64,000 nt of DNA from contig CAJOMT010000003.1 in the NCBI GenBank assembly GCA_905235815.1, forward strand, positions 190 through 64,189. Direction: 5' to 3'. A program made the translations under genes and the position numbers. The notes beneath the pieces were generated by a model that did not search any database, was not told the DNA's origin, and saw nothing but the letters and a program-made list of their open reading frames with translations. This stretch comes from an uncultured Clostridia bacterium (lineage in GTDB: Bacteria; Bacillota; Clostridia; Christensenellales; Borkfalkiaceae). Below, one piece after another: positions 18,819 to 36,617 of the stretch; the stretch's first letter is position 1; each line of letters starts with the position of its first letter.

Positions 18819-18820
18819 CT

Positions 18821-18845: not shown

Positions 18846-18863
18846 AGCAAAAACAAATAGGTT

Positions 18864-19841: not shown

Positions 19842-20466
19842 GGGAAGCGGATATTTTATAACATTAGAGGGCTGCGAAGGCTCGGGCAAGTCAACGCAGC
19901 TGAAAATGCTATGTGCGTATCTTGAAGAAAAGGGCATAGACGCCGTCTATACGAGGGAACCGGGCGGGACTGTTATATCCGAAAAGATCCGCTCGATAAT
20001 ACTCGATAACGAAAACAAAATAATGAGTGATGAGGCCGAGGCGCTTTTATATGCTGCGTCCCGTATACAGAATGTAAAGGAGAAGATTTTACCGGCATTA
20101 GAGAGCGGTAAAACGGTTATTTGCGACAGGTACGTGGATTCTTCTTTTGCGTATCAGGCGTATGCGAGGGGTTTAGGCTACGATTTTATATATAACATAA
20201 ATGAATTTGCCATAAAGACTTGTATGCCGGATATGACCTTATTTTTTGACATATCACCCGAAAGGGCGTTCGAACGCAAAGGCGGCGTAGATACGGGAGA
20301 TAGGATAGAACTCAGCGGACTCGATTTTCATAAATCGGTCTATAACGGGTATAATAAATTGGCGGAAAAATTTTCGGACAGAATAGTCAGAATAGACGCT
20401 ACAAAGAGCAAAGCCGAAATTTTTGCGAATGTAAAAGCAAATCTTAACCGATTGGGAATAGTGTGA
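19834..20466 (+). CDS. tmk: Thymidylate kinase
   Basis: P-loop EGCEGSGKSTQ; DRYVDSSFAYQ. Confidence 0.96.
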   Translation: MHKGSGYFITLEGCEGSGKSTQLKMLCAYLEEKGIDAVYTREPGGTVISEKIRSIILDNENKIMSDEAEALLYAASRIQNVKEKILPALESGKTVICDRYVDSSFAYQAYARGLGYDFIYNINEFAIKTCMPDMTLFFDISPERAFERKGGVDTGDRIELSGLDFHKSVYNGYNKLAEKFSDRIVRIDATKSKAEIFANVKANLNRLGIV

Positions 20467-20467
20467 T

Positions 20468-21409
20468 ATGACGTTTGCCGAAATCGTTAAAACAACGAAT
20501 GCATATAAGATTATGGCGGGAGAAAAGCGCAACGACGTTTTAAGTCATGCTTATCTCATAATCTGTGATGACGGCAAGGCGCTAAGGGACTACCTTAAAA
20601 TATTTGCCAAGCTTATAATGTGCGACGGCGATGAATTTTGCGGCGAGTGCAGAACTTGTCGGCTTATAGATAAAGAGGTGTATCCCGACTGCACTTTTTA
20701 TCCGCAAGAAAAGGATAAAATTTTGGTGTCGGATATAGACGATTTAGTCTCTCAAACATACGTCAGACCGCTCGAAAATAAGCGTAGATTATTCGTATTA
20801 TGCGGAGCGGAGAATATGAATACTTCCGCACAGAATAAACTGTTAAAGACGCTTGAAGAGCCGCCCGAAAACGTTGTGATTTTGATGGGCGCAACGTCAG
20901 AGTATCCGTTGCTTGCTACGATAAAATCGAGAGTTAAAAAGCTTGAAATACCGCCTATTCATTCGGAAATATTGTTTGACGTTTTAAAGAGTGAATTGAC
21001 CGACGAGGATAGGTTAAAGCGTGCTATTGCGTTGAGCGGCGGCAGAGTAGGCGAAGCCATAAGTTCGTATAACAGCGGCAAGGGCGAAGAACTGTTTATA
21101 AAATGCCGTAAAATCTTAAATGAGATGAAGACTTCGAGAGACGTGTTATCGTTTGTAGGAGATATAGATAAAGACGATATATCCGATTTTATAACCGCAA
21201 TGAAGATTGAAGCAGGCGAGATTCAGCGAAGAATAATAAGGGAAAACGTCAAGGAAATAAACGGATATACGGTAGGTGCGCTCGTAGCGATAGAAGAATT
21301 ACTCGATAAAAAATGCGACGCATTAAACTTTAATGCGAACGGAAATATGACTATTGACAGGATCCTGCTCGGCATTTTGGAGGAAAAGCATAAATGGCAA
21401 CAATTGTAG
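20468..21409 (+). CDS. holB: DNA polymerase III delta-prime subunit
   Basis: SHAYLI..., CGECRTC zinc module, NKLLKTLEEPP; follows tmk as in Bacillus. Confidence 0.93.
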   Translation: MTFAEIVKTTNAYKIMAGEKRNDVLSHAYLIICDDGKALRDYLKIFAKLIMCDGDEFCGECRTCRLIDKEVYPDCTFYPQEKDKILVSDIDDLVSQTYVRPLENKRRLFVLCGAENMNTSAQNKLLKTLEEPPENVVILMGATSEYPLLATIKSRVKKLEIPPIHSEILFDVLKSELTDEDRLKRAIALSGGRVGEAISSYNSGKGEELFIKCRKILNEMKTSRDVLSFVGDIDKDDISDFITAMKIEAGEIQRRIIRENVKEINGYTVGALVAIEELLDKKCDALNFNANGNMTIDRILLGILEEKHKWQQL

Positions 21410-22272
21410 GAATAAAATTCAAACATACCGGAAAGATATATTATTTTGACCCGACGGGCAAAAATTACCGAAAAGGCAGCGGCGTTATAGTAGAAACGGC
21501 GAGAGGCGTTGAATACGGTACGGTCGTCATAGAGAAAAAGGAAGTAGCCGATGACAAGATCGTTCAGCCCTTAAAGCCTATTTTGCGGCCGGCTAGTGCC
21601 GATGACGAGGCGAAAGTAAAGAAGAACGAAGAAAGAGTTCCGGAGGCCTTAAAGATTGCGACTGAAAAGAGCAAGGCGAGGGGCTTGGATATGAAGTTTA
21701 TCGACGCAGAATACACTTTCGACGGCAGCAAAATAATATTTTATTTTACGGCAGCGAGCCGAATTGATTTCAGAGAACTCGTAAAAGATATGGCGGCGGC
21801 GCTTCATAACAGAATAGAACTAAGACAAATCGGAATAAGGGACGAAACGAGGCTTATCGGAGGAATTGCTCCGTGTGGCAGAGTGTGTTGTTGTGCGGCG
21901 GGGGTTGCGGACTTTAAAAAGTCGTCTATAAAAATGGCGAAAACGCAAGGCTTATCGTTGAACCCATCGAAGATCAGCGGACTTTGCGGCAGATTGATGT
22001 GCTGTTTGGAATATGAAAATAATCATTACAGCGAAACGTTCAAGAAGATGCCGAAAGTCGGAAGCGAAGTGACTACGCCGGACGGCAAAGCGACGGTAGT
22101 ATCTAATAATATGCTTAAAATGCTTGTCAAGACCAAGTTTGAGGCGAGCGACGGAAGTTTGAGTTATAAAGAGTATAATTTATCGGATATAAAAGTCAAA
22201 AATGCGAACAACATTGCGGACATAGACGATTCCGCAGACGATTCCGAGATAAAAGAACTTTTGGACGACTGA
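21394..22272 (+). CDS. ricT: PSP1-domain protein RicT/YaaT
   Basis: PSP1 C-terminal region FTAASRIDFRELVKDMAAALHNRIELRQIG and Cys cluster CGRVCCC...CGRLMCCLEYE; synteny after holB. Confidence 0.9.
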   Translation: MATIVGIKFKHTGKIYYFDPTGKNYRKGSGVIVETARGVEYGTVVIEKKEVADDKIVQPLKPILRPASADDEAKVKKNEERVPEALKIATEKSKARGLDMKFIDAEYTFDGSKIIFYFTAASRIDFRELVKDMAAALHNRIELRQIGIRDETRLIGGIAPCGRVCCCAAGVADFKKSSIKMAKTQGLSLNPSKISGLCGRLMCCLEYENNHYSETFKKMPKVGSEVTTPDGKATVVSNNMLKMLVKTKFEASDGSLSYKEYNLSDIKVKNANNIADIDDSADDSEIKELLDD

Positions 22273-22343
22273 AAATAGTTTAATAAAAAAGCGTTATAAA
22301 AATAAAAAAGTTATAGAAAAATATATACAAATCCAAAAATTTG

Positions 22344-22352
22344 TGATATAAT
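22344..22352 (+). promoter_or_regulatory. Candidate extended -10 promoter (TGaTATAAT) for the ferredoxin gene
   Basis: TGATATAAT about 50 nt upstream of the ATG at 22402. Confidence 0.4.
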
Positions 22353-22401
22353 AAAAACAAGCAGTAGTGCGATAATAAAAAACTTACGGAGGTTTAGAAA
22401 A

Positions 22402-22572
22402 ATGGCTTATAAAATTACAGACGCATGTGTTTCTTGCGGCGCTTGTGCGGAGAATTGTCCCGTAGCGGCGATATCTCAAGGAGATACTCAATACGTAATC
22501 GATCCGGACACCTGTATAGGTTGCGGCGCTTGTGCGGAAATTTGTCCTGTGGGCGCGCCCGTAGAAGATTAA
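22402..22572 (+). CDS. fdx: Clostridial-type 2x[4Fe-4S] ferredoxin (56 aa)
   Basis: Hand-translated: MAYKITDACVSCGACAENCPVAAISQGDTQYVIDPDTCIGCGACAEICPVGAPVED. Two CxxCxxCxxxCP motifs; GGAGG RBS. The track instead shows an out-of-frame ORF at 22425-22619. Confidence 0.93.
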   Translation: MAYKITDACVSCGACAENCPVAAISQGDTQYVIDPDTCIGCGACAEICPVGAPVED

Positions 22573-22581
22573 AAAGAGAAA

Positions 22582-22612
22582 GGGCTGCCTTTAAGCGGCC
22601 CTTTTGTTTTTT
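22582..22612 (+). terminator. Intrinsic terminator after ferredoxin
   Basis: GGGCTGC-CTTTAA-GCGGCCC followed by TTTTGTTTTTT. Confidence 0.75.
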
Positions 22613-23305
22613 ATGTTGAGAGACGGAGAACGCTATGAGGAATTGCTCATCGGCGGTTATAAAATAATACAGAACGAAAATCTGTACAGATTTTCGAGCG
22701 ACGCTATAATATTATCCCGTTTTGCGCCGAAAATAAGCGGTAGAGTGGCAGATTTTTGTGCGGGTTCGGGAATAGTCGGAATACATTATTTTGCGCTTTT
22801 AGACGAAAATAAGCAAGTTAAAGAGGGAACGCAAATCGACGAGTTCGAGTTGCAGGCTTCGCTTGCGGATATGTGCGAGAGAAGTATAGAGTATAACGGG
22901 CTGGGCGACCATATTAAATGTTATAATACGGCATTGCAGGATATCGGAAGCGATTTTAACAATAAGTATTCGCTGATACTCTGTAATCCTCCCTATAAAA
23001 AAAAGGACTCGGGCGAGCAAAATACGGAAGATCATATTACAATATGCCGCCACGAAGTGCGTATTACTTTGGAAGAAATCGTTTTAATTTCTTCAAAGAA
23101 ATTAAAAGTCGGCGGTAGACTTTGTATTTGCCAAAGAACCGAACGGCTTACCGATCTGCTCGTAGCGCTCAGAAATTGCGGATTAGAGCCGTCGAGAATG
23201 CAGTTTGTAACGTCAGGAAAGTCAAAAATGCCGTATCTTGTTTTAGTTGAGGCGGCAAAAGGCGTAAAGCCGCAACTGAAAGTTTTACCGAATTACGAGA
23301 ACTGA
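22613..23305 (+). CDS. SAM-dependent N6-adenine methyltransferase, YabB/TrmN6-like
   Basis: DFCAGSGIVG SAM motif and LILCNPPYKKK (NPPY). Sits between ricT and rsmI, as yabB does in Bacillus. ATG at 22613 preferred over the TTG at 22604. Confidence 0.85.
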   Translation: MLRDGERYEELLIGGYKIIQNENLYRFSSDAIILSRFAPKISGRVADFCAGSGIVGIHYFALLDENKQVKEGTQIDEFELQASLADMCERSIEYNGLGDHIKCYNTALQDIGSDFNNKYSLILCNPPYKKKDSGEQNTEDHITICRHEVRITLEEIVLISSKKLKVGGRLCICQRTERLTDLLVALRNCGLEPSRMQFVTSGKSKMPYLVLVEAAKGVKPQLKVLPNYEN

Positions 23306-23307
23306 TT

Positions 23308-24104
23308 ATGTTTTATTTTGTTTCCACGCCTATCGGCAACTTGAAAGACATAACTTTAAGGGCACCCTTAAAGAAGTAGACGTCATCGCTTGTGAAGATA
23401 CGAGAACGTCTTTAAAATTATTAAACTTCTACGGAATAAAAAAGCCGCTTGTCGCATATCACAAGTTTAATGAACGAACTTCGGCGGAAGGTCTTATAGC
23501 GCTTCACGAGCAAGGAAAGAGCGTTGCGATTATAACAGATGCGGGAACGCCCGTCATATCCGATCCCGGGAACGTTTTGACGGAGATGCTCATCGAAAGG
23601 GGAATACCGTTTACGGTTGTACCGGGAGCGACTGCGTTTACGTCGGCGCTTATATTATCCGGTATGGATGCGTCGAGATTTGCCTTTATCGGATTTTTAC
23701 CCGAGAAAAAGAAGGATGCAAAAGAGGTTTTGGAAAAGTATAAAGATCTCGATATGACCTTGATATTTTACAGTGCGCCGCACGATTTAAAGAAAAATCT
23801 GGAATTACTGTATTCTGTTTTTGGAGACAGAAAAGCGGCTACCGTCAAAGAGATAACCAAAATGTTTGAAAAGACCGTCAGGCTAAGTCTATCGGATTAT
23901 GAAGCGGTAGAGGAGCCGAAGGGCGAATACGTCATAGTAGTCGAGGGCGGAAAAGGAAAGTTGTCAGACTTTACGGAACTTTCGGTCGAGGAACATTTAT
24001 CGAAATATCTCGATGAAGGTATGGATAAAAAAGAAGCAATTAAATTAGTTGCGAAAGAGCGAGGAATACCGAAAAACGAAGTATATAAATTTACGATAAA
24101 ATAA
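23308..24104 (+). pseudogene. rsmI: 16S rRNA (cytidine1402-2'-O)-methyltransferase RsmI, frameshifted
   Basis: Frame 0 reads MFYFVSTPIGNLKDITLRA, then PLKK-stop at 23377-23379. The +2 frame continues TLKEVDVIACEDTRTSLKLLNFYGIKKPLVAYHKFNE...ITDAGTPVISDPG... to 24104. Confidence 0.85.
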
Positions 24105-24146
24105 CGAACGGAATAATAAAAGTTTTGATATTTTTCTAAAATATCA

Positions 24147-24175
24147 TTGACAAAACGACGAATTTACATTATACT
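24147..24175 (+). promoter_or_regulatory. Sigma-A promoter TTGACA-17-TATACT
   Basis: Exact -35, 17-nt spacer, -10 TATACT; about 25 nt upstream of the LRR lipoprotein start. Confidence 0.65.
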
Positions 24176-24199
24176 GTATATAATGTGAGGAGTATTATT

Positions 24200-24871
24200 A
24201 TGAAAGGTAAAATTATTTCTCTTTTAATGTCGACAATGCTTGCCGTTTTGGCATTGGCGTCGTGCGATATAGGAATAACAAATAAAGAATACAAACCTAC
24301 GCCCGACAGTTATTTTACTTTTACTTATATTGAAGAATCGGACGCATATTCGATAGCGGCGAAAGACGGCGTAACCTTGCCGAGCGAATTAAAATTGCCG
24401 GCAAAATATAGCGGAAAGGATATAGTATCGATTTCTTACGAGGGCTTTATCGGCGATGAAAACGTAACGAGGGTTACTATTCCGGCAGGATATGAAAAAA
24501 TCGGTGTGAGTGCGTTTAAGGACTGTAAAAATCTGAAAAGCGTAACGATAAATGCGGATATCACGGCGATAGGCTCGATGGCGTTTTCGGAATGTAAGGT
24601 GCTTAGGACCGTTACTTTCCCCGCCTCGCTTAAAGAGATAGGGGCGTATGCGTTTTATGACACGGCGATATATTCGGCGAAATTCAAAGCGCTTGAGAAA
24701 ATTGACGAATATGCGTTTTATGGTTGTGAATATTTAAAGAACGTATATATACCCGAAACCACTTCGCAGATAGGAGATTTTGCGTTTGGCGGATGCGGAA
24801 TCGTGAATTTCGACGTTGCGGCGGCAAATCCTTATTATACCGTCAGAAACGGTGAAATAGTAAATAAATAA
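24200..24871 (+). CDS. BspA-type leucine-rich-repeat lipoprotein
   Basis: MKGKIISLLMSTMLAVLALASC lipobox. Repeats of the type VTIPAGYEKIGVSAFKDCKNLKSVTI / ITAIGSMAFSECKVLRTVTFP. Confidence 0.85.
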   Translation: MKGKIISLLMSTMLAVLALASCDIGITNKEYKPTPDSYFTFTYIEESDAYSIAAKDGVTLPSELKLPAKYSGKDIVSISYEGFIGDENVTRVTIPAGYEKIGVSAFKDCKNLKSVTINADITAIGSMAFSECKVLRTVTFPASLKEIGAYAFYDTAIYSAKFKALEKIDEYAFYGCEYLKNVYIPETTSQIGDFAFGGCGIVNFDVAAANPYYTVRNGEIVNK

Positions 24872-24878
24872 TTATATT

Positions 24879-24905
24879 AAAGCCGCTACTAAAGCGGCTT
24901 TTTTA
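24879..24905 (+). terminator. Intrinsic terminator
   Basis: AAAGCCGCT-ACTAA-AGCGGCTTT followed by TTTT. Confidence 0.85.
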
Positions 24906-24917
24906 AAGGGATAATAT

Positions 24918-25496
24918 ATGTACGGAGATTTTTACGCATATCTTGCGAGAATGAAATATATCAAGCGTTGGGCGCTTATGCGTTCGCAAAGCGAAGAAAA
25001 CGTAATGGAACACAGTTGGGAGGTTGCGGCGGTTGCCCATGCGCTTGCGCTAATAAAAAATACGATGTTCGGCGGCAAAGTCGACGAATATAAAGTTGTG
25101 TGCATGGCGCTCTATCACGAGACGAGCGAGGTAATAACGGGAGATTTGCCTACTCCGATAAAATATTTCAATTCCGAGATAAATTCGGCGTACAAAGACT
25201 TGGAGAAACTTGCCGGCGAGAAACTCATAAAGAGATTACCGGAAGAATTGCAGGGGAAATATGCGGAGTTTATTTTCTGCGACGCAAATTCAGAGGAATA
25301 TAAACTTATGAAGGCGGCGGATAAAATTTCCGCATATATAAAATGCGTAGAAGAGATTAAAGGCGGAAACAGCGAATTCAAGTCGGCGAAGGAAAGTATC
25401 GGAAAAGATATATACGGCAATGCCGATCCTGCGGTAAAATATTTCGTAGAGAATATATTGCCGTCTTTCGAAAAAACCCTCGACGAATTGGAATAA
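24918..25496 (+). CDS. HD-domain 5'-deoxynucleotidase, YfbR-like
   Basis: RWALMRSQSEENVMEHSWEVAAVAHALA...YHETSEVITGDLPTPIKY (H..HD..D pattern). Confidence 0.85.
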   Translation: MYGDFYAYLARMKYIKRWALMRSQSEENVMEHSWEVAAVAHALALIKNTMFGGKVDEYKVVCMALYHETSEVITGDLPTPIKYFNSEINSAYKDLEKLAGEKLIKRLPEELQGKYAEFIFCDANSEEYKLMKAADKISAYIKCVEEIKGGNSEFKSAKESIGKDIYGNADPAVKYFVENILPSFEKTLDELE

Positions 25497-25540
25497 AAAA
25501 TTTTCAAGGTGGAATAATTATATCGTCAAGGAGGTATTTT

Positions 25541-25696
25541 ATGCAGAAATTAAATCCGGGCGATATAGCCCCGACTACCGGACGCTATAAGGTTGTCGAT
25601 TCTCATGGTAACAAATTAGACGTTGTCGAAGTACAAGAGGGTAACAGACTTCCTCCCACGCAAAGTTCGGAGTACTATTACGTTTACGAAGATTAA
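25541..25696 (+). CDS. YjzC-like small protein (51 aa)
   Basis: Hand-translated: MQKLNPGDIAPTTGRYKVVDSHGNKLDVVEVQEGNRLPPTQSSEYYYVYED. AGGAGG RBS. The PG..AP..G.Y...G....v..G..lPPT pattern matches the YjzC family from memory. Confidence 0.7.
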   Translation: MQKLNPGDIAPTTGRYKVVDSHGNKLDVVEVQEGNRLPPTQSSEYYYVYED

Positions 25697-25712
25697 AATT
25701 CAGATTATATGT

Positions 25713-25748
25713 GAGCAGTCGGCTATTTGAGTCGGCTGCTCTCATTTT
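25713..25748 (+). terminator. Intrinsic terminator/attenuator after the small ORF
   Basis: 11-bp stem GAGCAGTCGGC/GTCGGCTGCTC (two G-U pairs), then TCATTTT. Confidence 0.7.
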
Positions 25749-25767
25749 AAAAAGAATATGAAATATG

Positions 25768-25796
25768 TTGACTTATTTTTCGGTTGAATGTATAAT
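25768..25796 (+). promoter_or_regulatory. Sigma-A promoter TTGACT-17-TATAAT
   Basis: Near-consensus hexamers with a 17-nt spacer, 18 nt upstream of the 25814 ATG. Confidence 0.75.
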
Positions 25797-25813
25797 TAAA
25801 TAGGTAGAGGAAG

Positions 25814-26527
25814 ATGATATATAAAATTGCCGGACTGAAAATACAAATAAACAATAAATACAAATATACGGAGCGTTTTTGCGAAAAATATCTCACCGAC
25901 GAAACGACTTGCGACTTGATAGCGGACGTAACCGATGAGGAGTTTGAGAGAGAGAAACTCGCATCAAAAGATTTTTCGGACGGCTACGTAGAGAATATTT
26001 GTCTGTACCGTTCGCTATGCAGACAACTTCCCGATTTTGACAGATTTTTATTGCATTCTGCGGTTTTGGAATACGACGGTAAAGCGTATGCTTTTTTAGG
26101 GCATAGCGGAGCGGGTAAATCCACGCATACGAGTTTATGGCTTGAATACGTACAGGGCTCAAAAATAATAAACGGCGATAAGCCGATAATCGAATACAAT
26201 GGCGGTAAATTTATCGCTTACGGCACGCCATGGAACGGCAAAGAGGGCAGAGGATATAACGGAAATGCCGAAATAGCGGGGCTATGCTTTATCGAACAAG
26301 CAAAGGATAACAGAATCGAAAAACTTTCGATTGCGGAAACCGCTAATCGTATTTTTACGCAAGTATTGCTTCCGACTGACGAGAGCAATGCGGTAAAGAC
26401 GTTGGAACTTATAGATAAACTTGTGCGCAGCGTTCCGTCTTACGTTTTATATTGCGACGTGTCCGAAGATGCTGTAAAGACGTCATACGAGGCGCTTGTC
26501 GGTAAAAATTATAGGAGAAATATATGA
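25814..26527 (+). CDS. HPr-kinase-C-terminal-like P-loop protein (RiPP-associated kinase-like)
   Basis: LLHSAVLEYDGKAYAFLGHSGAGKSTHTS Walker-A in an HprK-like context; 4-nt overlap with the PqqD-like gene. Confidence 0.65.
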   Translation: MIYKIAGLKIQINNKYKYTERFCEKYLTDETTCDLIADVTDEEFEREKLASKDFSDGYVENICLYRSLCRQLPDFDRFLLHSAVLEYDGKAYAFLGHSGAGKSTHTSLWLEYVQGSKIINGDKPIIEYNGGKFIAYGTPWNGKEGRGYNGNAEIAGLCFIEQAKDNRIEKLSIAETANRIFTQVLLPTDESNAVKTLELIDKLVRSVPSYVLYCDVSEDAVKTSYEALVGKNYRRNI

Positions 26528-26790
26528 AAATAAAGAAAGGGTTTGTGGTAAGAGAGGTCGGCGGCGAGAATATAGCCGTACCAATCGGCGAAATGGCGAA
26601 AGAATTTCACGGAATGATAAAACTCAATGATTCGGCGTTGTTTTTATGGAATTTTTTCAATGACGACAGAACGAGGGACGAAGCGGTAGCGGCTCTTATG
26701 GGCGAGTATGAAATTACTGAAGAAGAAGCGATAAAGGGCGTAGACTCTTTTATAAAACTCGTAACGGACAACGGCTTTGCAGATAGATGA
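26524..26790 (+). CDS. PqqD-family protein (RiPP recognition element-like)
   Basis: 88 aa. FVVREVGGENIAVPIG...IKLNDSALFLWNFF....TRDEAVAALMGEYEITEEEAIKGVDSFIKLVTDNGF is the typical PqqD/RRE pattern. Confidence 0.8.
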   Translation: MKIKKGFVVREVGGENIAVPIGEMAKEFHGMIKLNDSALFLWNFFNDDRTRDEAVAALMGEYEITEEEAIKGVDSFIKLVTDNGFADR

Positions 26791-27236
26791 ATATAGAAGA
26801 GTTGCTTTTAACCGAGGGTAAATACGTCGGCCCGACGTTCGGCGTCAGTATGTTGCCGATGCTGAAAAGCGGACGGGACAGCGTGGTAATATACCCGAAG
26901 AAATCCAGACTGTCAATATACGACGTCGCATTGTATAAGCGAGGCGACGATTATGTTTTGCACCGAGTGATCGGATTGACCGATTCGGGATACATAATAA
27001 GGGGAGATAATTGTTATTCCGACGAAAACGTATCCGAAGAAAGGGTGATAGGCGTATTGACTGAATATTTCAAAAAAGATAAGAGGATAGCACTTACGGA
27101 TAAAAAGTATATGCGTTACGTAAAGAGGCGTGTAAAATATTATCCGATAAGGCGTTTTTTTGTACTTACAAAGTTAAAAATAAAGGGCTTTGCGGCAAAG
27201 ATTTTAGGGCGCGGCAAAAAATCCGAGAAACAATAA
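26787..27236 (+). CDS. S24/S26-family peptidase, SipW/ER-type Ser-His variant, no N-terminal TM
   Basis: GVSMLPML (nucleophile Ser box) and YVLHRVIG (His where bacterial SPase I has KR). Basic C-terminal tail. Confidence 0.7.
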   Translation: MNIEELLLTEGKYVGPTFGVSMLPMLKSGRDSVVIYPKKSRLSIYDVALYKRGDDYVLHRVIGLTDSGYIIRGDNCYSDENVSEERVIGVLTEYFKKDKRIALTDKKYMRYVKRRVKYYPIRRFFVLTKLKIKGFAAKILGRGKKSEKQ

Positions 27237-27252
27237 AAGGATAAGGATAAAT

Positions 27253-30096
27253 ATGAACGAAAATTTTACAATGCTTAAAAATGCAATCTGTAATGAGGAT
27301 AACATTAAAGCATACAGAGCGATTCCATTTTGGAGTTGGAATAACGAACTCGACGAAAAGTATTTGGTAAAACAAATAGAGGAAATGAAAGAGGTTGGAA
27401 TCGGCGGATTCATAATGCACGCAAGGACCGGACTCAAAGACGAATATCTGGGCGAAAAATGGTTTGATTGTATAGGCGCTTGCCTCAAAAAAGCAAAAGA
27501 ACTCGGAATGTCGGCTTGGGTATACGATGAGAACGGTTGGCCGTCCGGTTTTGTCGGGGGCAAACTGCTCGAAAACGAGGAATATCGGGCAAGATTTTTA
27601 GAATATCAAGTAAAAGATTACTTTGATGAAAGTGCGGAATGTGTATTTGAAAAGACCGAAAACGGCTTCGAGAGAATATATTCCGCAAAAGATAATATAA
27701 AAGAATATCATTGCGTTTACATAAGGGTAAGCCCTGCCAATTCAGATATTTTAAAAGCGGAAGTGGTAGACGAATTTATCCGTTTGACACACGAAGAATA
27801 TTATAAGCGTTTTAAAGACAGTTTCGGCAAAGAATTAGTGGGTTTTTTCACCGACGAGCCGCAATATTACAGATGGGCTACTCCGTATACTCCCGCTATG
27901 GACGGAATATTCTTTGAAAGATATGGCGAAAAAGTAAGAGATTATCTTGTCTATCTTTTCGTATCTGACGCGAGGGGATATGAATTTCGTTACAGATATT
28001 TTTGTCTGTTAAACGAAATGTACGTGAACGTATATTATAAAAAATTATACGACTGGTGCGAGGCGCATAATTGTAAATTGACCGGACATTCGGTTGAAGA
28101 GGGCGGTCTTGTATGTCAGATGCTCGGCGGTGCGGCGGTGATGCCGACTTACGAATGCGAGCATATTCCGGCTATCGATGCGCTTGCAAGAGTATGCGGC
28201 AACGATTTAGCCCCCAAACAAGTCGGCAGCGTTGCAAGTCAACTCGGTAAAAAGCAGGTTTTAACCGAAACTTTCGGTTGTAGCGGCAACGACGCTACTC
28301 CGAAAGAATTAAAGGCGATCGCCGAATGGCAATATTTTAACGGCGTAAATTTAATGTGCCAACATTTATTGCCTATATCCGTTGCGGCTCAAGGAAAAGT
28401 CGACCATCCGCCGGTTTTTTCAAAACACAGTAATTGGTGGGAAGACAGTAAAGAATTTTACGATCATTTTGCAAAACTCGGGTATATTATAGCGAATACT
28501 ACCGAGACTTACGACATCGGAATCATTCACCCGATGAGAAGTATTTATCTCGATTATCAGAGAGATTTATATTATGACAGTGTAAAAGAACTCGAAGATT
28601 CGTTTAATAAACTGATTTCCGATTTAAGAGCGAACGGCGTTCGCTATCAACTGATAGACGAAACGATACTTGCAAAATATGGCAGAAACGAAGGGGATAA
28701 ACTGATAGTCGGCAACTCGTCTTATGATAAGATAATCGTTCCCGATATGAAATGTATTGCCTCTCATACGCTCGAATTGCTTAGCGGGTATCACGGTAAA
28801 CTCCTATGTTTAGGAAAAATCGAATGCGTTGACGGTAAAAAGAAAGAAGTCGGATTGAAATCGAACGTTACGTGGGACGATATATTAAACGATAGGGGAA
28901 TTAAATTCAGGTGCGACGACGGCAAGACGTTTATAACTTCGAGAAAAGGGGAATTGGGAGAGTTTATTTTCGTTCTTAACAAGTCGCTTACCGAAAGCAG
29001 TGAAATTGAATTTGAAAACGTAGCGAATAGCTTTGCGTCCTTGGATTTGCAATCTTTAAAACTTGACGCAATAAATGATAAAACTACGCTCAAAAAATGC
29101 GAGTCGCTCATACTCGTAAAGACGGACAAAGTTGCACCTGAACTTGAAAGAAGTAGCGAAATCGAAGATATTACTTCCTCGTTTAAAGTTACAGGCATAA
29201 CCGAAAACTTTCTCGTTCTGGATTGTGCGTCGTATAGTTTTGACGGTGTAAAATATAGCGATAATCAACCTATACCGAGGCTTTTTGAAGAACTTTTGCG
29301 AATGGACTATAAAGGAAAGGTATATATAAAGCAAGGGTTTACGGTAAAAGATAAGGTGCCTGCCACGTTCATAATCGAAAAGGGGCGTTTCGAATTTATA
29401 AAAGTAAACGGCAGAGAATTAAGCCTTAAAGATAACGATTTCGATATATTTTTCGGCGAGGCGGACATATCGGATAAATTGGTCGTAGGCGAAAACGAGA
29501 TAGTATACTGCGTGAACTACTACCAGCACGAAGGAGTGCATTTTGCCTTGTTCGATCCGCTTGCGACAGAGAGTTTAAGGAATTGTCTCTACTACGATAC
29601 GCATATTGAGAATACTTACATCAAGGGCAATTTCAGAGTAGATGCGGATATGAATATATGTGCGCCCGAGCAGATAGGGATAACGTCTGAAATGTACAAA
29701 AACGGCTATCCGTTCTTTAAAGGCACTATGACTGTTTCCGGCGAATATTATTACGACGGAGTCGGCAAGCGCATTTTGTCGTTAGACGACGGTAGGTTTT
29801 TGGTTGCTGACGCCTTGATAAACGGTAAACGGGAGAGTTTGGTTCTCGCAACCGAAAAGGATATAACGGACCTGCTCGTAAGGGGCAACAATAAAATCGA
29901 GATAAAACTCAATTCGAGCCTGAGAAATTTACTCGGCCCGCATCATTTCAAGTCCGATTCGGATCCGCTCGGCGTTTCGCCGTATTGTTTTAATTTCAGA
30001 GGTTGTTGGGGCGATAAAATCCCGAAAGATTATACGCCGGAATATAAACTTGTTCCGTTCGGTTTGAATTCGATAAAACTAAAAATAATCAAATAA
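27253..30096 (+). CDS. Large glycoside-hydrolase-like protein (family unassigned), no signal peptide
   Basis: N-terminus RAIPFWSWNNELDEKYLVKQIEEMKEVGIGGFIMHARTGL...AWVYDENGWPSGF. From memory this resembles proteins annotated as glycosyl hydrolase / jelly-roll GH-like. Only 16 nt after the peptidase gene. Confidence 0.55.
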   Translation: MNENFTMLKNAICNEDNIKAYRAIPFWSWNNELDEKYLVKQIEEMKEVGIGGFIMHARTGLKDEYLGEKWFDCIGACLKKAKELGMSAWVYDENGWPSGFVGGKLLENEEYRARFLEYQVKDYFDESAECVFEKTENGFERIYSAKDNIKEYHCVYIRVSPANSDILKAEVVDEFIRLTHEEYYKRFKDSFGKELVGFFTDEPQYYRWATPYTPAMDGIFFERYGEKVRDYLVYLFVSDARGYEFRYRYFCLLNEMYVNVYYKKLYDWCEAHNCKLTGHSVEEGGLVCQMLGGAAVMPTYECEHIPAIDALARVCGNDLAPKQVGSVASQLGKKQVLTETFGCSGNDATPKELKAIAEWQYFNGVNLMCQHLLPISVAAQGKVDHPPVFSKHSNWWEDSKEFYDHFAKLGYIIANTTETYDIGIIHPMRSIYLDYQRDLYYDSVKELEDSFNKLISDLRANGVRYQLIDETILAKYGRNEGDKLIVGNSSYDKIIVPDMKCIASHTLELLSGYHGKLLCLGKIECVDGKKKEVGLKSNVTWDDILNDRGIKFRCDDGKTFITSRKGELGEFIFVLNKSLTESSEIEFENVANSFASLDLQSLKLDAINDKTTLKKCESLILVKTDKVAPELERSSEIEDITSSFKVTGITENFLVLDCASYSFDGVKYSDNQPIPRLFEELLRMDYKGKVYIKQGFTVKDKVPATFIIEKGRFEFIKVNGRELSLKDNDFDIFFGEADISDKLVVGENEIVYCVNYYQHEGVHFALFDPLATESLRNCLYYDTHIENTYIKGNFRVDADMNICAPEQIGITSEMYKNGYPFFKGTMTVSGEYYYDGVGKRILSLDDGRFLVADALINGKRESLVLATEKDITDLLVRGNNKIEIKLNSSLRNLLGPHHFKSDSDPLGVSPYCFNFRGCWGDKIPKDYTPEYKLVPFGLNSIKLKIIK

Positions 30097-30101
30097 TTTT
30101 T

Positions 30102-30133
30102 AAGGCGTTCCGAAATGCGGACGCCTTTTTTTG
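30102..30133 (+). terminator. Intrinsic terminator
   Basis: AAGGCGTTCCG-AAATG-CGGACGCCTT followed by TTTTTTTG. Confidence 0.85.
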
Positions 30134-30215
30134 TTGTCAATTTTAATATCAAAATTACTTATCTGTGGTATAACTAAAACTAATATCACAATTTAACACA
30201 ATGTTCACAATGCAA

Positions 30216-30244
30216 TTGACAATTTGCAGTCTTTTTATTATAAT
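30216..30244 (+). promoter_or_regulatory. Perfect consensus sigma-A promoter TTGACA-17-TATAAT
   Basis: TTGACA at 30216-30221, 17-nt spacer, TATAAT at 30239-30244. Confidence 0.8.
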
Positions 30245-30287
30245 ATTATAGTTTAATAGTATAATAAGGCGAATATCGGTTTTCGGG

Positions 30288-30330
30288 AAGAACAAGCTTG
30301 TTCTTTCGGCGTTTTTGCAAAAACGCCGAA
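30288..30330 (+). promoter_or_regulatory. Two abutting perfect palindromes in the 5' leader (hairpins or operators)
   Basis: AAGAACAAGCTTGTTCTT (30288-30305) and TTCGGCGTTTTTGCAAAAACGCCGAA (30305-30330). Confidence 0.6.
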
Positions 30331-30365
30331 TACCTAAATGCCGATAAGAGGACGTTTGATATTTT

Positions 30366-31490
30366 ATGGCAAAAAACTTAAAAAAAGAAAAATTTATTTT
30401 GGTTCTTTGTCTGCTTGCGGCGCTTATAATGGCGCTTGCGGCTGCGGGGTGCGCTGAAAATACCGAGAATGACAGCAGAATCAAGGTCGTATACGAACTC
30501 GAAGGAGGTAAGTACTTAAACAGCGAACTTCCGATAGTTGTGTATTACAATTTCGGAGATAAGGGCGAAACTCACAGGATAAGAGAGCTGACCGAAGTAA
30601 CCGCCGAATCTCTGACGAGAGCGGGCTATACCTTTGACGGTTGGTATCGCCAAAAGTCGGGCGATGGCGATGAGGCGGTGTATTCCGAAATGTGGAATTT
30701 CGAGACCGATCTCATCGGAAAAGAGGGCGTAACGCTTTACGCTAAATGGCAGCCCAATATCGAGTATAAGTATTCGATGTATTATAGGGACGGCGACGAA
30801 CTCGTCTTTTACAAGAGTGAAATCCTATACAAAGGCGAACAATTCGATAACGACAAGGCAAAGCGTACGGGATATACGGTGCTGGCCTGCTACGACGAAA
30901 ACTCAGATCCGTGGGATTACAGTTTTGAAAACGACGTGGGCGACGTAAAAGTCATAGTCGATTACATCGAGGGCGAATATAAATTGGTTGGCAGCTATGC
31001 AGAATTAAAGTCGTCGGTAACGAAGAACATTTATCTGACTGCGGATATCGATTGCGATGGCGAAGACTTTAATTTCGGAGATTATTCTGGCAAGACGTTA
31101 AAGGGTAACGGATATACGATATCGAACTTTGCGCTCGGAGGCGATCAAACCTTAAAGACCGATCCGTTCGGAAATCAGAACGCTTTGCTCATAAGTCTGT
31201 TTGGCAGTATGAAAAATACTGTAATAGAGGACGTAAATTTCAAAGACGTAAAGATAACCGTTTCCGCCAGACTTCAAAAGACGCGAAAAGTTTACGTTTC
31301 GCCGATTGCGATTATGGCTGAAAATTGTAAGATAAGCGGTGTAACGTTCAAAGGAACGGTTGAACTCGGCAAATTTTACGACGGCTTTGATATGAGCGAT
31401 TTGACAGTCGTAACTGACAGTGAGTGCGTGGATAGTAAAAATTCTGAATTTTTCGGAAACGAAATCGAACTTGAAAAAATAAATTTCTAA
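30366..31490 (+). CDS. Lipoprotein with Listeria-Bacteroides-type repeat and beta-helix-like C-terminal region
   Basis: Lipobox LAAAGC; AGYTFDGWYRQ...VTLYAKW repeat; 12 nt upstream of the SBP gene. Confidence 0.8.
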   Translation: MAKNLKKEKFILVLCLLAALIMALAAAGCAENTENDSRIKVVYELEGGKYLNSELPIVVYYNFGDKGETHRIRELTEVTAESLTRAGYTFDGWYRQKSGDGDEAVYSEMWNFETDLIGKEGVTLYAKWQPNIEYKYSMYYRDGDELVFYKSEILYKGEQFDNDKAKRTGYTVLACYDENSDPWDYSFENDVGDVKVIVDYIEGEYKLVGSYAELKSSVTKNIYLTADIDCDGEDFNFGDYSGKTLKGNGYTISNFALGGDQTLKTDPFGNQNALLISLFGSMKNTVIEDVNFKDVKITVSARLQKTRKVYVSPIAIMAENCKISGVTFKGTVELGKFYDGFDMSDLTVVTDSECVDSKNSEFFGNEIELEKINF

Positions 31491-31502
31491 AAGGAAGATA
31501 TT

Positions 31503-34151
31503 ATGACTAAGAAAAAGAAACTTGTGGAACTTAATAGCATTGTTCTGGCCTTGGTATTAGCAATGGTCGGAACGCTTATGGCACTGACCGGCTGCGGTCA
31601 AGACAATGGCGATACGTCAAATCAGGGTGGCGGAAAGAAACAGTATTTCAACAATGAGGAAGATCCTCTCGTATTTTCGACGCTCGAACTCGATAAGGTA
31701 TTCAATCCTTTCTATTCGACTTCCGGAACGGATTCGACCGTAGTCGGAATGACGCAGATCGGAATGATGGCAAACGACGCTAACGGCAATCCGAGTTACG
31801 GCGCAAACGAGGCGGTAATGACTCTCGACTATGAGAGCAAGGAAGAAGGCGCTGGCGAAGATAAGACGACGACGTATTATTTCGTATTGAAAAATAACGT
31901 CAGATGTTCGGACGGTTCGTACCTTACGATGAAAGACGTACTCTTTAATTTGTACGTATATCTCGATCCCGCATATACCGGATCGTCTACCATATATTCG
32001 ACGGATATAGTCGGACTTCAGGAATACCGTACACAGCAAGCGAGCGAAATCGAGCAGAAAAACGCAATGAACGGCTTCAGATTAGATGCGACGGCGAGAA
32101 TAACCGCTCTCATCGAAGTATTTGAAGAATACGCCGACGAAAATACTATTATATTTAAAGACGAATTCGAGGAGTATTTGCAAAACTATAACGGCGGAAC
32201 TGTTTACGACCACGTTTACGAGGACTATCTGAAAGCGGAATCTCTTTTCAAAGAGGAATTGAACGACGATTATTCTAATTCGATGGACTCTTATGAAAAC
32301 ATAATATTTACCGATAAGAACAAGGTTAATCACCCGAACTTATTGACGACCGACGTCGAGGTATTTTTATATAACGAAGGCTACCTTAAATGGAATAAGG
32401 ACGACGCTAAACTCGAATGTGTCTTTGAAAACGACGTCAGCAAACTGAAAAATTACACGAAAGAGCAAGCAATCAATAGCGTGTTTAACGGAGAATTCCC
32501 GAAAAATCTCGACTTGATATTGCAATATTGGAACACGGCGACAACTCTCCACGAGTATCTTACTAATTTGGCGATGGAAGAGTATTATCAATCGACCGAA
32601 TTGAGATACGAAAACATTTCCGGAATAAAATTCGCGAACAGAACCGCACCCGTAACCGTAAACGGTAAAACCTATGCGGCGGTTGGCGATCATTATCAGC
32701 CAAGCGGCGCACCTGAGAACGGGTATAACGAAGTACTTTCCATAACCATAAAAGGAATCGATCCCAAAGCGATTTGGAACTTTGCGTTTACGGTAGCGCC
32801 GATGAGTTATTATTCTGACGCAGAGCATATAAACAAATTCGATTATGAAACCAATTTCGGCGTAGAGTATGCTTCGCAGAGTTTCCAGAGCGACGTAATT
32901 AAGGACCCGAATAAGATAGGCGTTCCGAGAGGAGCGGGCGCATATGCCGCAAGCAAGTCGAGCGGCGGCTTAAACAACGTATCATCCGGAGATTTCTACG
33001 ATAAAGGCGTAGTATACTTCGAGCGCAATCCGTACTTTATGTTGGGCGCTCCGAAGATTAAAAAAGTTCGTTTCCAAGTTGTATCTTCGGCGCAGATGCT
33101 CACGACTCTTTATAATAATGAAACGGACTATGCGGAACCGAATGCTACCACGAAGATCATTTCCGAACTGAACGGAAAAATTTCCGAAGGCATAGGCAAT
33201 AAATCCGTTAAAACTCTCGGCTACGGCTACATAGGAATCAACGCCGGCAAAGTACCGGAAATGAAGATTCGTCAACTCATAATGCATTGTATCAACACTC
33301 AAGAGTGCGTAAACTATTACGGCACCGAGGCTACGGCAATATACCGTCCTATGTCGACGGAGAGTTGGGCTTATCCGAAAGATGCAACGCCTTATTATCC
33401 TTATATTGATGATAAAATTCCCGAAAATCTCGACGTTGTGAACCCCGATTACAGAAACTTCGTCAATAAAAAAGGCAAAAAGGCAGGAGATAAATTTACC
33501 GAAGCAGAGAAGAAGGAGTTTATAGAACAATTGCTCGAAGAGGCAGGATTTACTTCCACTAACAGCGAAGGCGTTCTGACTAATTCGAGAGGCGAGTCGT
33601 TAAAATATACGTTTACGGTAGCCGGTCAAGAGACCGATCACCCCGCATACAGAGCGATGGTACACGCTGCCGAAATTCTCAACAAGTACGGATTTGCGGT
33701 AACCGTAACGACCGACGCAAACGCTTTATCGAAACTGTCCACCGGTTCTTTGACGGTATGGGCTGCTGCGTGGGGCGCAACGATCGATCCGGATATGTAT
33801 CAGGTATATCATAAAGATTCTACTGCGACCTCTACTTTGAACTGGGGATACAGACAGATACTTTTAAATAGCGGAAACAGATACAGCGAAGAACTTGCAT
33901 TAGTCGAAGAACTTTCCGATATAATAGAGAAAGCAAGGGAGACGAACAACCAAGCGGCGAGAGCGAAAGAGTATTCCAAAGCGCTCGATCTCGTAATGCA
34001 ACTTGCGGTAGAACTTCCGACGTATCAAAGAAAAGACTTGTTTGCCTACAATTCCAATAAGATAGACACGTCTACTTTCTTTGCGAACCCGACTTCGTTC
34101 AAGGGACTTACGAGCGATATGTGGAATTTGTCCTTAAACGTGGAGAGATAA
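31503..34151 (+). CDS. ABC transporter substrate-binding lipoprotein, family 5 (Opp/Dpp type), oversized (882 aa)
   Basis: Lipobox MALTGC. Family-5-like stretches (VKFSDGSxLT-type: VRCSDGSYLTMKDVLFNL; GIDPKAIWNFAFTVAPMSYY; GYGYIGINAG; AAAWGATIDPDMYQVYH). Confidence 0.8.
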   Translation: MTKKKKLVELNSIVLALVLAMVGTLMALTGCGQDNGDTSNQGGGKKQYFNNEEDPLVFSTLELDKVFNPFYSTSGTDSTVVGMTQIGMMANDANGNPSYGANEAVMTLDYESKEEGAGEDKTTTYYFVLKNNVRCSDGSYLTMKDVLFNLYVYLDPAYTGSSTIYSTDIVGLQEYRTQQASEIEQKNAMNGFRLDATARITALIEVFEEYADENTIIFKDEFEEYLQNYNGGTVYDHVYEDYLKAESLFKEELNDDYSNSMDSYENIIFTDKNKVNHPNLLTTDVEVFLYNEGYLKWNKDDAKLECVFENDVSKLKNYTKEQAINSVFNGEFPKNLDLILQYWNTATTLHEYLTNLAMEEYYQSTELRYENISGIKFANRTAPVTVNGKTYAAVGDHYQPSGAPENGYNEVLSITIKGIDPKAIWNFAFTVAPMSYYSDAEHINKFDYETNFGVEYASQSFQSDVIKDPNKIGVPRGAGAYAASKSSGGLNNVSSGDFYDKGVVYFERNPYFMLGAPKIKKVRFQVVSSAQMLTTLYNNETDYAEPNATTKIISELNGKISEGIGNKSVKTLGYGYIGINAGKVPEMKIRQLIMHCINTQECVNYYGTEATAIYRPMSTESWAYPKDATPYYPYIDDKIPENLDVVNPDYRNFVNKKGKKAGDKFTEAEKKEFIEQLLEEAGFTSTNSEGVLTNSRGESLKYTFTVAGQETDHPAYRAMVHAAEILNKYGFAVTVTTDANALSKLSTGSLTVWAAAWGATIDPDMYQVYHKDSTATSTLNWGYRQILLNSGNRYSEELALVEELSDIIEKARETNNQAARAKEYSKALDLVMQLAVELPTYQRKDLFAYNSNKIDTSTFFANPTSFKGLTSDMWNLSLNVER

Positions 34152-34196
34152 AGAATAAAAGATAAATTATAACTCAAAAGCAACAAACGATAATTT

Positions 34197-35531
34197 ATGT
34201 TTAAATATATTGTTAAAAGAATTTTGATATCGATATTGATACTGTTCGGGGTGTCCGTAATCATATATACTATGGTTCGGCTCATGCCCTCAGACTACGT
34301 AGATACGAAATTCGCTTCACAACTTCAAAATAATGCGATAAGTCAGGACGATATCGACCATTTTAAAGAGCTTTACGGAATAAATATGCCCGAAGCGTAT
34401 TTAAATATAACGATAGAGGGCGGCGACTATGCAGGTAAATATACCGCCAACGCAAGGAAAAACGACTACGAATATGCTATTTTAAGTAGAGAGTTTTCTG
34501 AAACGTGGATACAAAAATCGTATAAAAAAGGCTCCTTGGTTCTCGTTTTATCAAAAGACGGTTTAGCGCAGATATCAGAGGGTACGAAAGTACTTGCCGT
34601 AGGCAATTATAACGTAAACTTTAATATAGACGAAACTAATTTCAATGCCGAATTGCTTTTGAATATCGGCGGCGGAACGGCGTCCAAGATAGAATACAAG
34701 GTTGCCGGTTTTTGGAGTAAGGCAGGCTCGGTGCTCGGCGGATATTTCAACTGGGTAGGCAGATTATTGCAAGGAGATCTCGGCAATTCGTTCTTATATG
34801 AAAAGCCGGTTGCGCAAGTTATAACCGAAAACATGTGGATATCGTTTGCGATAGCGGTTATCGCCACTATTTTGCAGTTCCTCATAGCAATACCTCTCGG
34901 AATATCGAGCGCAACGCACCAATATTCGGTCAGAGATTATACCGTTACGGTTCTTACGATGATAGGTATATCTTTCCCGACGTTCTTCTTTGCGGCGATA
35001 GTAATAAAGATTTTCGCACTGCAACTCGGTTGGTTCCCGTCGCAAGGTCTTATAAGCGCAACTGCGAGTTATCCCGCAACGTTTGCGGGCGGAATGATGA
35101 AATTCGGCGACATAGTCAAGCACCTTGTATTGCCGATTTTCGTAAGCGTCGTACTTTCGATAGGCGGACTTATGCGTTATACCCGTACTAATACGCTCGA
35201 AGTACTGAGCGCCGACTATATTCGTACTGCGAGGGCAAAGGGACTTTCCGAAAATAAAGTAATATACAAACATGCATTCAGAAACACGTTGATTCCTTTG
35301 GCTACGCTTCTTGCCGGAATATTGCCGTCGCTTTTTGGCGGAATGATGATTACGGAAAAAGTTTTCGCAATCGACGGTATCGGTAATCTGGCGTATAAGG
35401 CGCTGATGAGCGGCGATATACCGTTTATTATGGGATACAATATGTTTTTGGCAGTACTTACGGTAATAGGCACACTTCTCTCGGATATTATGTATTCGAT
35501 AGTCGATCCGAGAGTTAAACTCGGCAGGTGA
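34197..35531 (+). CDS. ABC permease, OppB/DppB type, with ~115-aa extracytoplasmic insertion
   Basis: MFKYIVKRILISILILFGVSVIIY start; EAA-loop region YIRTARAKGLSENKVIYKHAFRN; 444 aa. Confidence 0.9.
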   Translation: MFKYIVKRILISILILFGVSVIIYTMVRLMPSDYVDTKFASQLQNNAISQDDIDHFKELYGINMPEAYLNITIEGGDYAGKYTANARKNDYEYAILSREFSETWIQKSYKKGSLVLVLSKDGLAQISEGTKVLAVGNYNVNFNIDETNFNAELLLNIGGGTASKIEYKVAGFWSKAGSVLGGYFNWVGRLLQGDLGNSFLYEKPVAQVITENMWISFAIAVIATILQFLIAIPLGISSATHQYSVRDYTVTVLTMIGISFPTFFFAAIVIKIFALQLGWFPSQGLISATASYPATFAGGMMKFGDIVKHLVLPIFVSVVLSIGGLMRYTRTNTLEVLSADYIRTARAKGLSENKVIYKHAFRNTLIPLATLLAGILPSLFGGMMITEKVFAIDGIGNLAYKALMSGDIPFIMGYNMFLAVLTVIGTLLSDIMYSIVDPRVKLGR

Positions 35532-36601: not shown

Positions 36602-36617
36602 TCGCACGGACAAAATA

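Follow-up and report, generated by a model that had tools for sequence, protein, structure and literature searches.

A Clostridial kinase, recognition-element and peptidase gene trio is probably a reduced relative of the LPP peptide-maturation machinery

A stretch of 64,000 nucleotides from an uncultured Clostridia bacterium (GenBank assembly GCA_905235815.1, contig CAJOMT010000003.1; hereafter, the window) contains a compact transcription unit of four open reading frames (ORFs), in which the genes for an HprK/PEPCK-fold P-loop protein (orf1), a discrete PqqD-type recognition element (RRE) of the kind found in pathways for peptides made by ribosomes and modified after translation (RiPPs) (orf2), and a soluble S26 peptidase (orf3) are followed by a gene for a large protein resembling glycoside hydrolases (GHs) (orf4) (Table 1). 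The trio orf1–orf3 is probably a reduced relative of the linear polyphosphorylated peptide (LPP) RiPP machinery, with its genes in the order kinase, RRE, and leader peptidase (lppK-lppB-lppS). The orf1/orf2 and orf2/orf3 junctions are both 4-nt ATGA overlaps, and the gap of 16 nt between orf3 and orf4 contains a ribosome-binding site (RBS); because the gap is this short and holds no terminator, orf4 is probably co-transcribed with the trio. The unit has clean borders, since a second terminator closes the YjzC-like ORF that lies upstream. Although promoter-like sites as a class are not enriched in the window (17 found versus 13.3 expected from shuffled sequences), the promoter preceding orf1 is well positioned. 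The layout of a promoter, four tightly packed ORFs, and a terminator at 25768–30133 had been described in an initial annotation made from the sequence alone, and it was reproduced by the ORF, promoter, and hairpin scans. In agreement with the same annotation, domain and ORF scans revealed no cyclase, B2 protease, radical S-adenosylmethionine (SAM) enzyme, or recognizable precursor in or beside the operon, where an exporter was likewise not found, and scans with PADLOC and Rfam gave nothing relevant.

Table 1. Elements of the transcription unit and its left border, numbered from the first letter of the window
Feature	Position	Strand	Description
Upstream terminator	25713–25741	+	Terminates the YjzC-like ORF upstream; left limit of the unit; 12-bp stem, 7 GC pairs, T-run
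Promoter	25768–25796	+	TTGACT-17-TATAAT, sigma-70-type; 11/12 matches; 18 nt before the ATG of orf1
RBS of orf1			GGTAGAGGAAG; between the promoter and the orf1 start codon
orf1	25814–26527	+	237 aa; LppK-like HprK/PEPCK-fold P-loop protein, presumed peptide kinase
orf2	26524–26790	+	88 aa; discrete PqqD-type RRE, LppB-like role
orf3	26787–27236	+	149 aa; soluble archaeal/SipW-type S26 peptidase, LppS-like
orf4	27253–30096	+	947 aa; cytoplasmic GH106-like glycoside hydrolase
Intrinsic terminator	30102–30133 (hairpin 30102–30127)	+	Ends the unit; 9-bp stem, 5 GC pairs, then TTTTTGTTGT

The type of pathway to which the trio is compared is already known from the LPP clusters of Bacilli, including Paenibacillus alginolyticus, which share the core genes lppA (precursor), lppK (HprK-like kinase), lppB (discrete RRE), lppS (SpI-like peptidase), lppD (MsbA-like exporter), and lppN (NTP transferase) (PMC13381572, Popov et al., Nat Commun 2026). 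LppK adds up to four phosphates to Ser3 of the core, and LppS, with the catalytic residues Ser29, His68, and Asp93, cuts the leader after Thr-1 only in the presence of LppB and is inactivated by mutation of those residues; the product that defines these clusters is linear and has more than one phosphate on a single Ser (PMC13381572). These clusters represent a new RiPP route, reported in 2026 in work confined to Bacilli, in which an HprK-like kinase polyphosphorylates the peptide and a homologue of signal peptidases, directed by an RRE, cuts off its leader (PMC13381572). The initial annotation had conceived the trio as a lasso-like set for recognition, phosphorylation, and leader cleavage that does without a cyclase and has a serine peptidase instead of the B2 protease. 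This core idea is correct and matches the LPP architecture; its further suggestion that such a pathway is undescribed has been overtaken by the experimental demonstration of the lppA-K-B-S-D-N architecture in 2026 (PMC13381572). Our literature survey on ScmC, SynChlorMet, and combinations of HPr kinase, PqqD, and S24 proteins found nothing.

Searches of orf1 and orf3 against PDB sequences, with both sequences and profiles, gave either P-loop noise or nothing, and predicted structures were needed to identify the two proteins. The AlphaFold2 model of orf1 (predicted local distance difference test score, 93) has its best PDB fold matches in ATP-dependent PEPCK and the catalytic domain of HprK/P (E-values, 1.6e-6 to 1e-4). 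The P-loop of the protein reads GHSGAGKST, and the motifs GxSGxGKSTH, NGDKP, and GTPWxGKE are invariant in its family; the Asp of NGDKP would, from its position, be the counterpart of the catalytic Asp of HprK/P. Precomputed family annotation assigns orf1 to the newer Pfam family PF27840 ('ScmC'), and the protein itself matches only weakly the models of TIGR04249 ScmC, HprK-related kinases A and B, and PEPCK. When 20 members of the orf1 family were compared with the models, TIGR04249 was matched by 19, HprK_rel_A by 10, and PEPCK by 8, with every score far under the curated cut-off. In the LPP study, the 'HprK kinase' group is defined by TIGR04249, TIGR04352, and TIGR04355 (PMC13381572), which are matched by 19, 10, and 7 of the same 20 members, respectively. 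As judged by family models and fold, orf1 is an HprK-like protein of this type, and the HprK-like P-loop assignment in the initial annotation is borne out by the fold match to HprK/P and PEPCK together with the weak family models.

It is conceivable that orf1, as may be true of ScmC, is not a peptide kinase but an ATP-dependent partner of another sort, such as a scaffold, a chaperone that depends on nucleotides, or a phosphorylase, and that the module only cleaves and hands over a peptide. The family best matched by orf1, ScmC (TIGR04249), indeed belongs to radical-SAM 'SynChlorMet' cassettes and has a putative function, HprK/P itself is bifunctional, and the likeness of orf1 to characterized kinases is one of models and fold. 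However, TIGR04249-type proteins are counted among the kinases of lpp clusters, in which deletion of lppK abolishes phosphorylation (PMC13381572), the HprK-like enzymes of lasso clusters phosphorylate precursor peptides, and both the P-loop and the invariant Asp of NGDKP are kept throughout the orf1 family. We consider a non-kinase role of orf1 improbable and retain the assignment as a presumed peptide kinase.

The 88-residue orf2 product is a clear PqqD-type RRE, as first proposed, with an E-value of 5.5e-12 and a score of 46 bits (cut-off, 23) against PF05402, in addition to a weak match to the ScmD model (TIGR04248). It is encoded as a discrete protein beside the peptidase, its gene overlapping both neighbors by 4 nt. 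Over its full length, it shows 35–38% identity to RREs that stand beside SpI-like peptidases in Dehalobacter, Anaerocolumna, and an uncultured Ruminococcus, which are placed in clusters 4 and 9 of a sequence similarity network (SSN), classed as 'RRE others', and listed with the precursor 'ND' in Supplementary Data 1 of the LPP study (PMC13381572). Clostridial relatives appear in that study only as such other RREs, with the precursor not determined (PMC13381572). The peptidase orf3 contains the family-invariant motifs SMLP, HRV, and GDN and the catalytic residues Ser21, His59, and Asp79, and its best folds are the signal peptidases SpsB and SipA, followed by UmuD' and LexA; the small Ser/His peptidase of S24/S26 type named in the initial annotation is confirmed by these motifs and folds. 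In a profile alignment with LppS (hhalign; probability, 92%; E-value, 6e-7), Ser21, His59, and Asp79 align to Ser29, His68, and Asp93 of LppS, in agreement with an SpI-like (archaeal-type) Ser/His/Asp leader peptidase homologous to LppS. The most similar sequence in the LPP study is the peptidase of SSN cluster 9 (37% identity), not that of cluster 1. In its structure model, orf3 has a helix at the N-terminus and another, long and basic, at the C-terminus (residues 106–145); no hydrophobic or transmembrane segment was found in orf3, which lacks the membrane anchor by which a bona fide type I signal peptidase holds its active site outside the cell.

At the level of clusters with 90% identity, 3737 relatives of orf1 and 2424 relatives of orf3 were found, almost all of them from uncultured Clostridia of gut and rumen metagenomes ('Clostridia bacterium', 'Candidatus Scatosoma', and Christensenellaceae). 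Homologues of orf1 and orf3 are adjacent in 85 loci, with an RRE gene between them in 79. The gene that follows the peptidase encodes, also in 79 of the 85 loci, an MsbA-like half-transporter of ~555 residues composed of ABC_membrane and ABC_tran domains; three of the six loci without this gene stop at contig edges and one (L006) ends ~0.5 kb past the peptidase gene, so that the exporter is known to be lacking, with complete downstream sequence, only in L004 and L017. In L004, a 363-residue protein with no Pfam match (L004:9618-10709) is encoded at the usual position of the ABC exporter. A gene of the NTP_transf_5 type, LppN-like, comes after the exporter in eight loci (L037, L043, L061, L064, L069, L070, L106, and L107), and one clade of relatives accordingly reproduces the order K-B-S-D-N, which becomes A-K-B-S-D-N in L043 with its small upstream ORF. 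The window itself contains neither an MsbA-like exporter nor a match to an NTP transferase. The absence of an exporter pointed out in the initial annotation therefore holds for the window but not for the system, and is a peculiarity of the lineage to which the window belongs.

Based on the gene content and order equal to those of the lpp core, the alignment of orf3 with LppS, the HprK/PEPCK fold of orf1, and the PqqD-type RRE of orf2, and also on the MsbA-like exporter and, in one clade, the NTP_transf_5 protein added in the relatives, the relationship of the trio to the LPP machinery is considered probable. The usual location of the cassette is behind purB, in a neighborhood of housekeeping genes and not in a capsule locus. 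In the purB context (L001:11214-13353 and about 27–36 other loci), genes for a divergent AraC-family regulator and an APH-family phosphotransferase regularly come after it, and in L103 a pair of NTP_transferase (PF00483) and APH genes comes directly after the exporter; these neighbors could be further tailoring genes or merely syntenic.

The fourth gene of the unit requires separate treatment. The orf4 product scores 36.2 bits against the GH106 model PF17132 (gathering threshold, 29), with only model positions 269–537 of 743 covered, and also matches an alpha-L-rhamnosidase model; it has a weak match to a C-terminal jelly-roll domain and no signal sequence, and a homologue of 35% identity scores 74 bits against PF17132. 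Its description as a large cytoplasmic GH-like protein is hence well founded, and a comparison with PDB sequences produced only spurious TALE-repeat matches. No GH homologue lies beside the trio in the 85 loci found via orf1, nor in the cassette loci fetched later, and none of the 10 metagenome loci with a GH homologue (26–59% identity) carries trio genes; the neighbors of these homologues are a GH78 rhamnosidase, sugar ABC permeases, a GH99-like protein, and DUF5107. In L017, the nearest relative with complete downstream sequence, the same genes as in the window (PSP1, a methyltransferase, an LRR_5 lipoprotein, and a YfbR-like HD hydrolase) are found upstream, and an unrelated ORF resembling sigma factors, not a GH gene, comes after the trio. 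Because the GH gene never accompanies the trio in the 85 loci and the trio is absent from the 10 GH loci, the GH106-like gene is a local accident beside the trio and not part of the peptide module.

This result is incompatible with the view of the initial annotation that the GH is an attached member of the pathway, and lends no support to its alternative that the trio controls the hydrolase; the linkage of the four genes in other genomes, which it had put forward as a check, is found for the trio and never for the GH, which is excluded by that very comparison. It is accordingly very improbable that the four genes constitute one functional unit, in which the RRE, the kinase, and the peptidase recognize, phosphorylate, or cleave the N-terminus of the GH or otherwise control it, a reading already largely refuted by the missing linkage. 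The likely co-transcription of orf3 and orf4 would fit such a unit, and the N-terminal stretch YRAIPFWSWNN of the GH superficially recalls the YxxP...SWN of LppA. However, YRAIPFWSWN is kept in all GH homologues without a trio and belongs to the GH fold, so that the stretch was rejected as an LppA-like leader, and the homologues are found in contexts of rhamnoside and glycan utilization. The GH106-like gene, which occupies the position of the exporter gene of the relatives, is probably read from the promoter of the trio and serves carbohydrate breakdown instead of the peptide pathway. For genome annotation, the 'RiPP-plus-glycosidase' operon is a local juxtaposition that should not be propagated as a functional unit. 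Around one GH homologue, a LexA-like repressor with a helix-turn-helix and a Peptidase_S24 domain (L094:1647-2258) is encoded ~2.7 kb upstream; it is unrelated to orf3, and its presence there is coincidental.

Several observations weigh against a close correspondence of the trio to the LPP machinery. The scores of orf1 are far below the curated cut-offs of the ScmC and HprK-related families. The RRE is only distantly related to LppB (24% identity over 49 residues) and falls outside the LppB clade with its Tyr-binding pocket; Asp70 of LppB, which is hydrogen bonded to the leader Tyr, aligns with Gly in orf2, as read from the pairwise alignment. Neither the window nor any related locus contains the LPP leader YxxP...FxT. 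Moreover, six loci (L044, L053, L065, L076, L080, and L081), sister to the clade of the window, have no RRE gene and keep the kinase, peptidase, and exporter genes, the former two abutting or overlapping; since LppS needs LppB, the mechanism may differ in detail from that of LPP. Finally, neither a precursor nor an exporter is encoded in the 64 kb of the window, and peptide-directed activity of this particular copy is proposed by analogy.

The last point raises the possibility that the trio is what remains, in a state of decay, of a K-B-S-D cluster from which exporter and precursor were lost, and that it has no function left. In the phylogenetic tree of orf1, the window, L006, and L017 form a basal clade, the only one without an exporter; the loss of the RRE instead from the sister loci also suggests erosion, and no substrate is visible in the 64 kb. 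On the other hand, all three genes are intact in the window, with every family-invariant residue and the ATGA overlaps retained, and the trio has its own strong promoter. Among the three genomes, whose proteins are 56–77% identical, the ratio of nonsynonymous to synonymous substitution rates (dN/dS) is 0.07–0.31 for the computable pairs, with saturated dS and with no estimate for two of the three orf3 pairs. Because of these ratios and the intact invariant motifs, the trio is regarded as maintained; it is kept under purifying selection in this lineage, and a functionless remnant is unlikely. We conclude that the trio of the window is functional and would serve a precursor encoded elsewhere.

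Candidate precursors were sought in the window and the related loci. A six-frame scan of the window and all loci for [YW]xxPx9Fx[TA] gave only chance matches in non-coding frames, and the LPP precursor leader YxxPxVLxHQxIxFETxxS (Px9Fx[T/A]) was not found. A small ORF of 40–80 codons is present, however, directly upstream of the kinase gene in 24 of the 76 genome loci with enough upstream sequence, where it occupies the room between purB and the kinase gene, a position equal to that of lppA. Such ORFs were found among L007–L084 and beyond (for example, L020:7839-7997, L032:2763-2921, L043:7823-7963, and L103:4207-4422), and in most loci they end a few to ~40 bases before the start of the kinase gene (~145 bases in the exceptional L042). 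The 26 distinct sequences are built alike: a basic N-terminus leads into a hydrophobic segment resembling a signal, after which come a spacer, variable and often acidic, and the C-terminal tail. In 16 of them there is an xxGC or xxAC similar to a lipobox, and in 21 the tail fits W-[TS]-x-x-[YH]-stop, most commonly EWTNNY. The ORF also occurs in other contexts, namely after a lacto-N-biose phosphorylase gene in L103, with the tail GWTGFY, and before the complete K-B-S-D-N set of L043. When the small intergenic ORFs of the loci gathered by then and of positions 17001–36000 of the window were clustered all against all, no further conserved family of small ORFs emerged.

With a profile of the small ORFs, only 24 clusters were retrieved from the protein collection, a number that leaves their distribution uncertain, as short ORFs often escape gene calling; two of these clusters, looked up on seven contigs, stand directly before the ScmC-PqqD-peptidase-ABC genes. 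In the orf1 tree, the loci with the peptide fall mostly into one large clade, in which they are interleaved with peptide-less loci, and also into two distant branches, a distribution that points to repeated loss or relocation. We put the chances about even that the cognate precursors of the relatives are the W-T-x-N-Y peptides. A more tentative proposal is that such a gene also serves the trio of the window, in the 64 kb of which neither an ORF ending in W-T-x-N-Y nor an LppA-type leader was found. Equally tentative is the broader proposal that the Clostridial K-B-S-D(-N) cassette matures a precursor class new in comparison with LPP, that is, pro-peptides of 40–80 residues with a Sec or lipoprotein signal, an acidic spacer, and a near-invariant W-T-x-N-Y tail, encoded at the position of lppA and, in genomes like that of the window, by an unlinked gene. 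If so, the product would be a phosphorylated and possibly further decorated peptide, secreted or membrane-anchored, and the system making it would be nearly universal, present in single copy, and embedded among housekeeping genes in an abundant, uncultured lineage of the gut; such a profile would suit a role in signalling or at the cell surface better than that of a sporadic antibiotic.

Another small ORF in the window is the YjzC-like one of 51 residues immediately upstream of the trio (25541–25696), which ends in SSEYYYVYED and matches the Pfam model YjzC with an E-value of 1e-3, below the cut-off. It has a counterpart of 76% identity at the same place in L006, and its C-terminus is acidic and rich in Ser and Tyr, as might suit a substrate of the trio. 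However, the ORF is closed by a terminator of its own, and the promoter stands between it and orf1. It is absent from the trio-bearing L017 and from all other loci except L006, has neither a YxxP motif nor the architecture of a signal peptide with a W-T-x-N-Y tail, and belongs to an independent family of small proteins. A role as the substrate of the trio is therefore very unlikely.

Outside the unit, a perfect promoter (12/12 matches) at 30216–30244, downstream of orf4, starts the next one. The region 30216–46465 encodes a List_Bact_rpt lipoprotein, an 882-residue SBP_bac_5 lipoprotein, and permeases and ATPases of the Opp type, and ends with a secreted S8 subtilase of 2482 residues containing PA, Big_2, and eight LRR_5 stretches; by its appearance, this region adjoining the GH gene looks like a locus for protein and peptide foraging. 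It is followed at 46462–53632 by four successive ORFs of 192, 775, 852, and 545 codons without a Pfam match at an E-value of 1e-5, standing between the giant subtilase and a List_Bact_rpt/Big_2 protein of 1770 residues. Upstream of the unit, a weak Rfam match to Trp_leader at 24811–24907 (25.9 bits; gathering threshold, 41; E-value, 0.063), located between the genes for the LRR_5 lipoprotein and the YfbR-like HD hydrolase, is probably due to chance.

Altogether, a mechanism modeled on the tested Paenibacillus LPP system may be outlined for the trio. The RRE orf2 would bind a ribosomal precursor peptide and present it to orf1, which may phosphorylate a hydroxyl side chain in the manner of the LPP and lasso-cluster kinases, and to orf3, which would remove the leader in an RRE-dependent way as in LPP. 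The precursor and an ABC exporter are presumed to be encoded elsewhere in the genome of the window, so that export would be carried out by an unlinked ABC transporter. With thousands of protein clusters at 90% identity in Clostridia of the gut and rumen, the sister system is far more widespread than LPP and offers a concrete, testable entry to what such systems make.

Among the known systems, the GH106 alpha-L-rhamnosidase family concerns orf4 alone, which exceeds the gathering threshold of PF17132 and whose homologues adjoin the GH78 rhamnosidase and sugar permeases, but which matches only the central part of the model. The SipW/Sec11-type (S26B) signal peptidases share with orf3 the Ser/His/Asp motifs (SMxP, HRV, and GDN/xDE) and the S24/S26 fold, whereas orf3 has no membrane anchor, is cytoplasmic, and is coupled to an RRE. 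In the SynChlorMet cassette, ScmC (TIGR04249) and ScmD (TIGR04248) are accompanied by two radical-SAM/SPASM enzymes; ScmC is the best family match of orf1 and ScmD a weak match of orf2, but orf1 scores 20 bits against a TIGR04249 cut-off of 125 and radical-SAM genes are not found nearby. The small upstream ORFs of the relatives resemble, as we take it, secreted pro-peptides of the Phr/RRNPP type, which would likewise be 40–80 residues long and lead from an N-terminal signal peptide through a variable spacer to a short C-terminal tail that is conserved; they differ in sharing an operon with the kinase, RRE, peptidase, and ABC exporter genes instead of a Rap/RRNPP receptor gene. The paeninodin-type lasso clusters of Bacillota (K, B1, B2, C, D, and N) have in common with the Clostridial module the HprK-like precursor kinase, the discrete PqqD-type B1 protein, the ABC exporter, and the NTP_transf_5-type enzyme, whereas the module has no macrolactam synthetase and a serine peptidase in place of the transglutaminase-like B2 protease; the Asn-synthetase-like lasso cyclase and B2 protease were found neither in the operon or the ORFs scanned at 15–59 kb of the window nor in the gene tables of the related loci.

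The closest resemblance is to the LPP clusters. The trio of the window has the same content and the same order K-B-S, the catalytic Ser, His, and Asp of the peptidases align, and the Clostridial relatives add an MsbA-like exporter and, in one clade, an NTP transferase, with no cyclase or B2 protease. In contrast, the RRE of the window shares only ~24% identity with LppB across half of its length and would be classed in the LPP study as 'RRE others', the hosts are uncultured Clostridia with the cassette placed after purB among housekeeping genes instead of in the capsule loci of LPP, and the copy in the window is devoid of A, D, and N and of the leader YxxPxVLxHQxIxFETxxS. The trio is thus a sister variant that falls outside the LPP family in the limits set by its authors, and the novelty lies in a large sister family of LPP-like cassettes in Clostridia, which has another RRE clade and a candidate precursor of the signal-peptide type.

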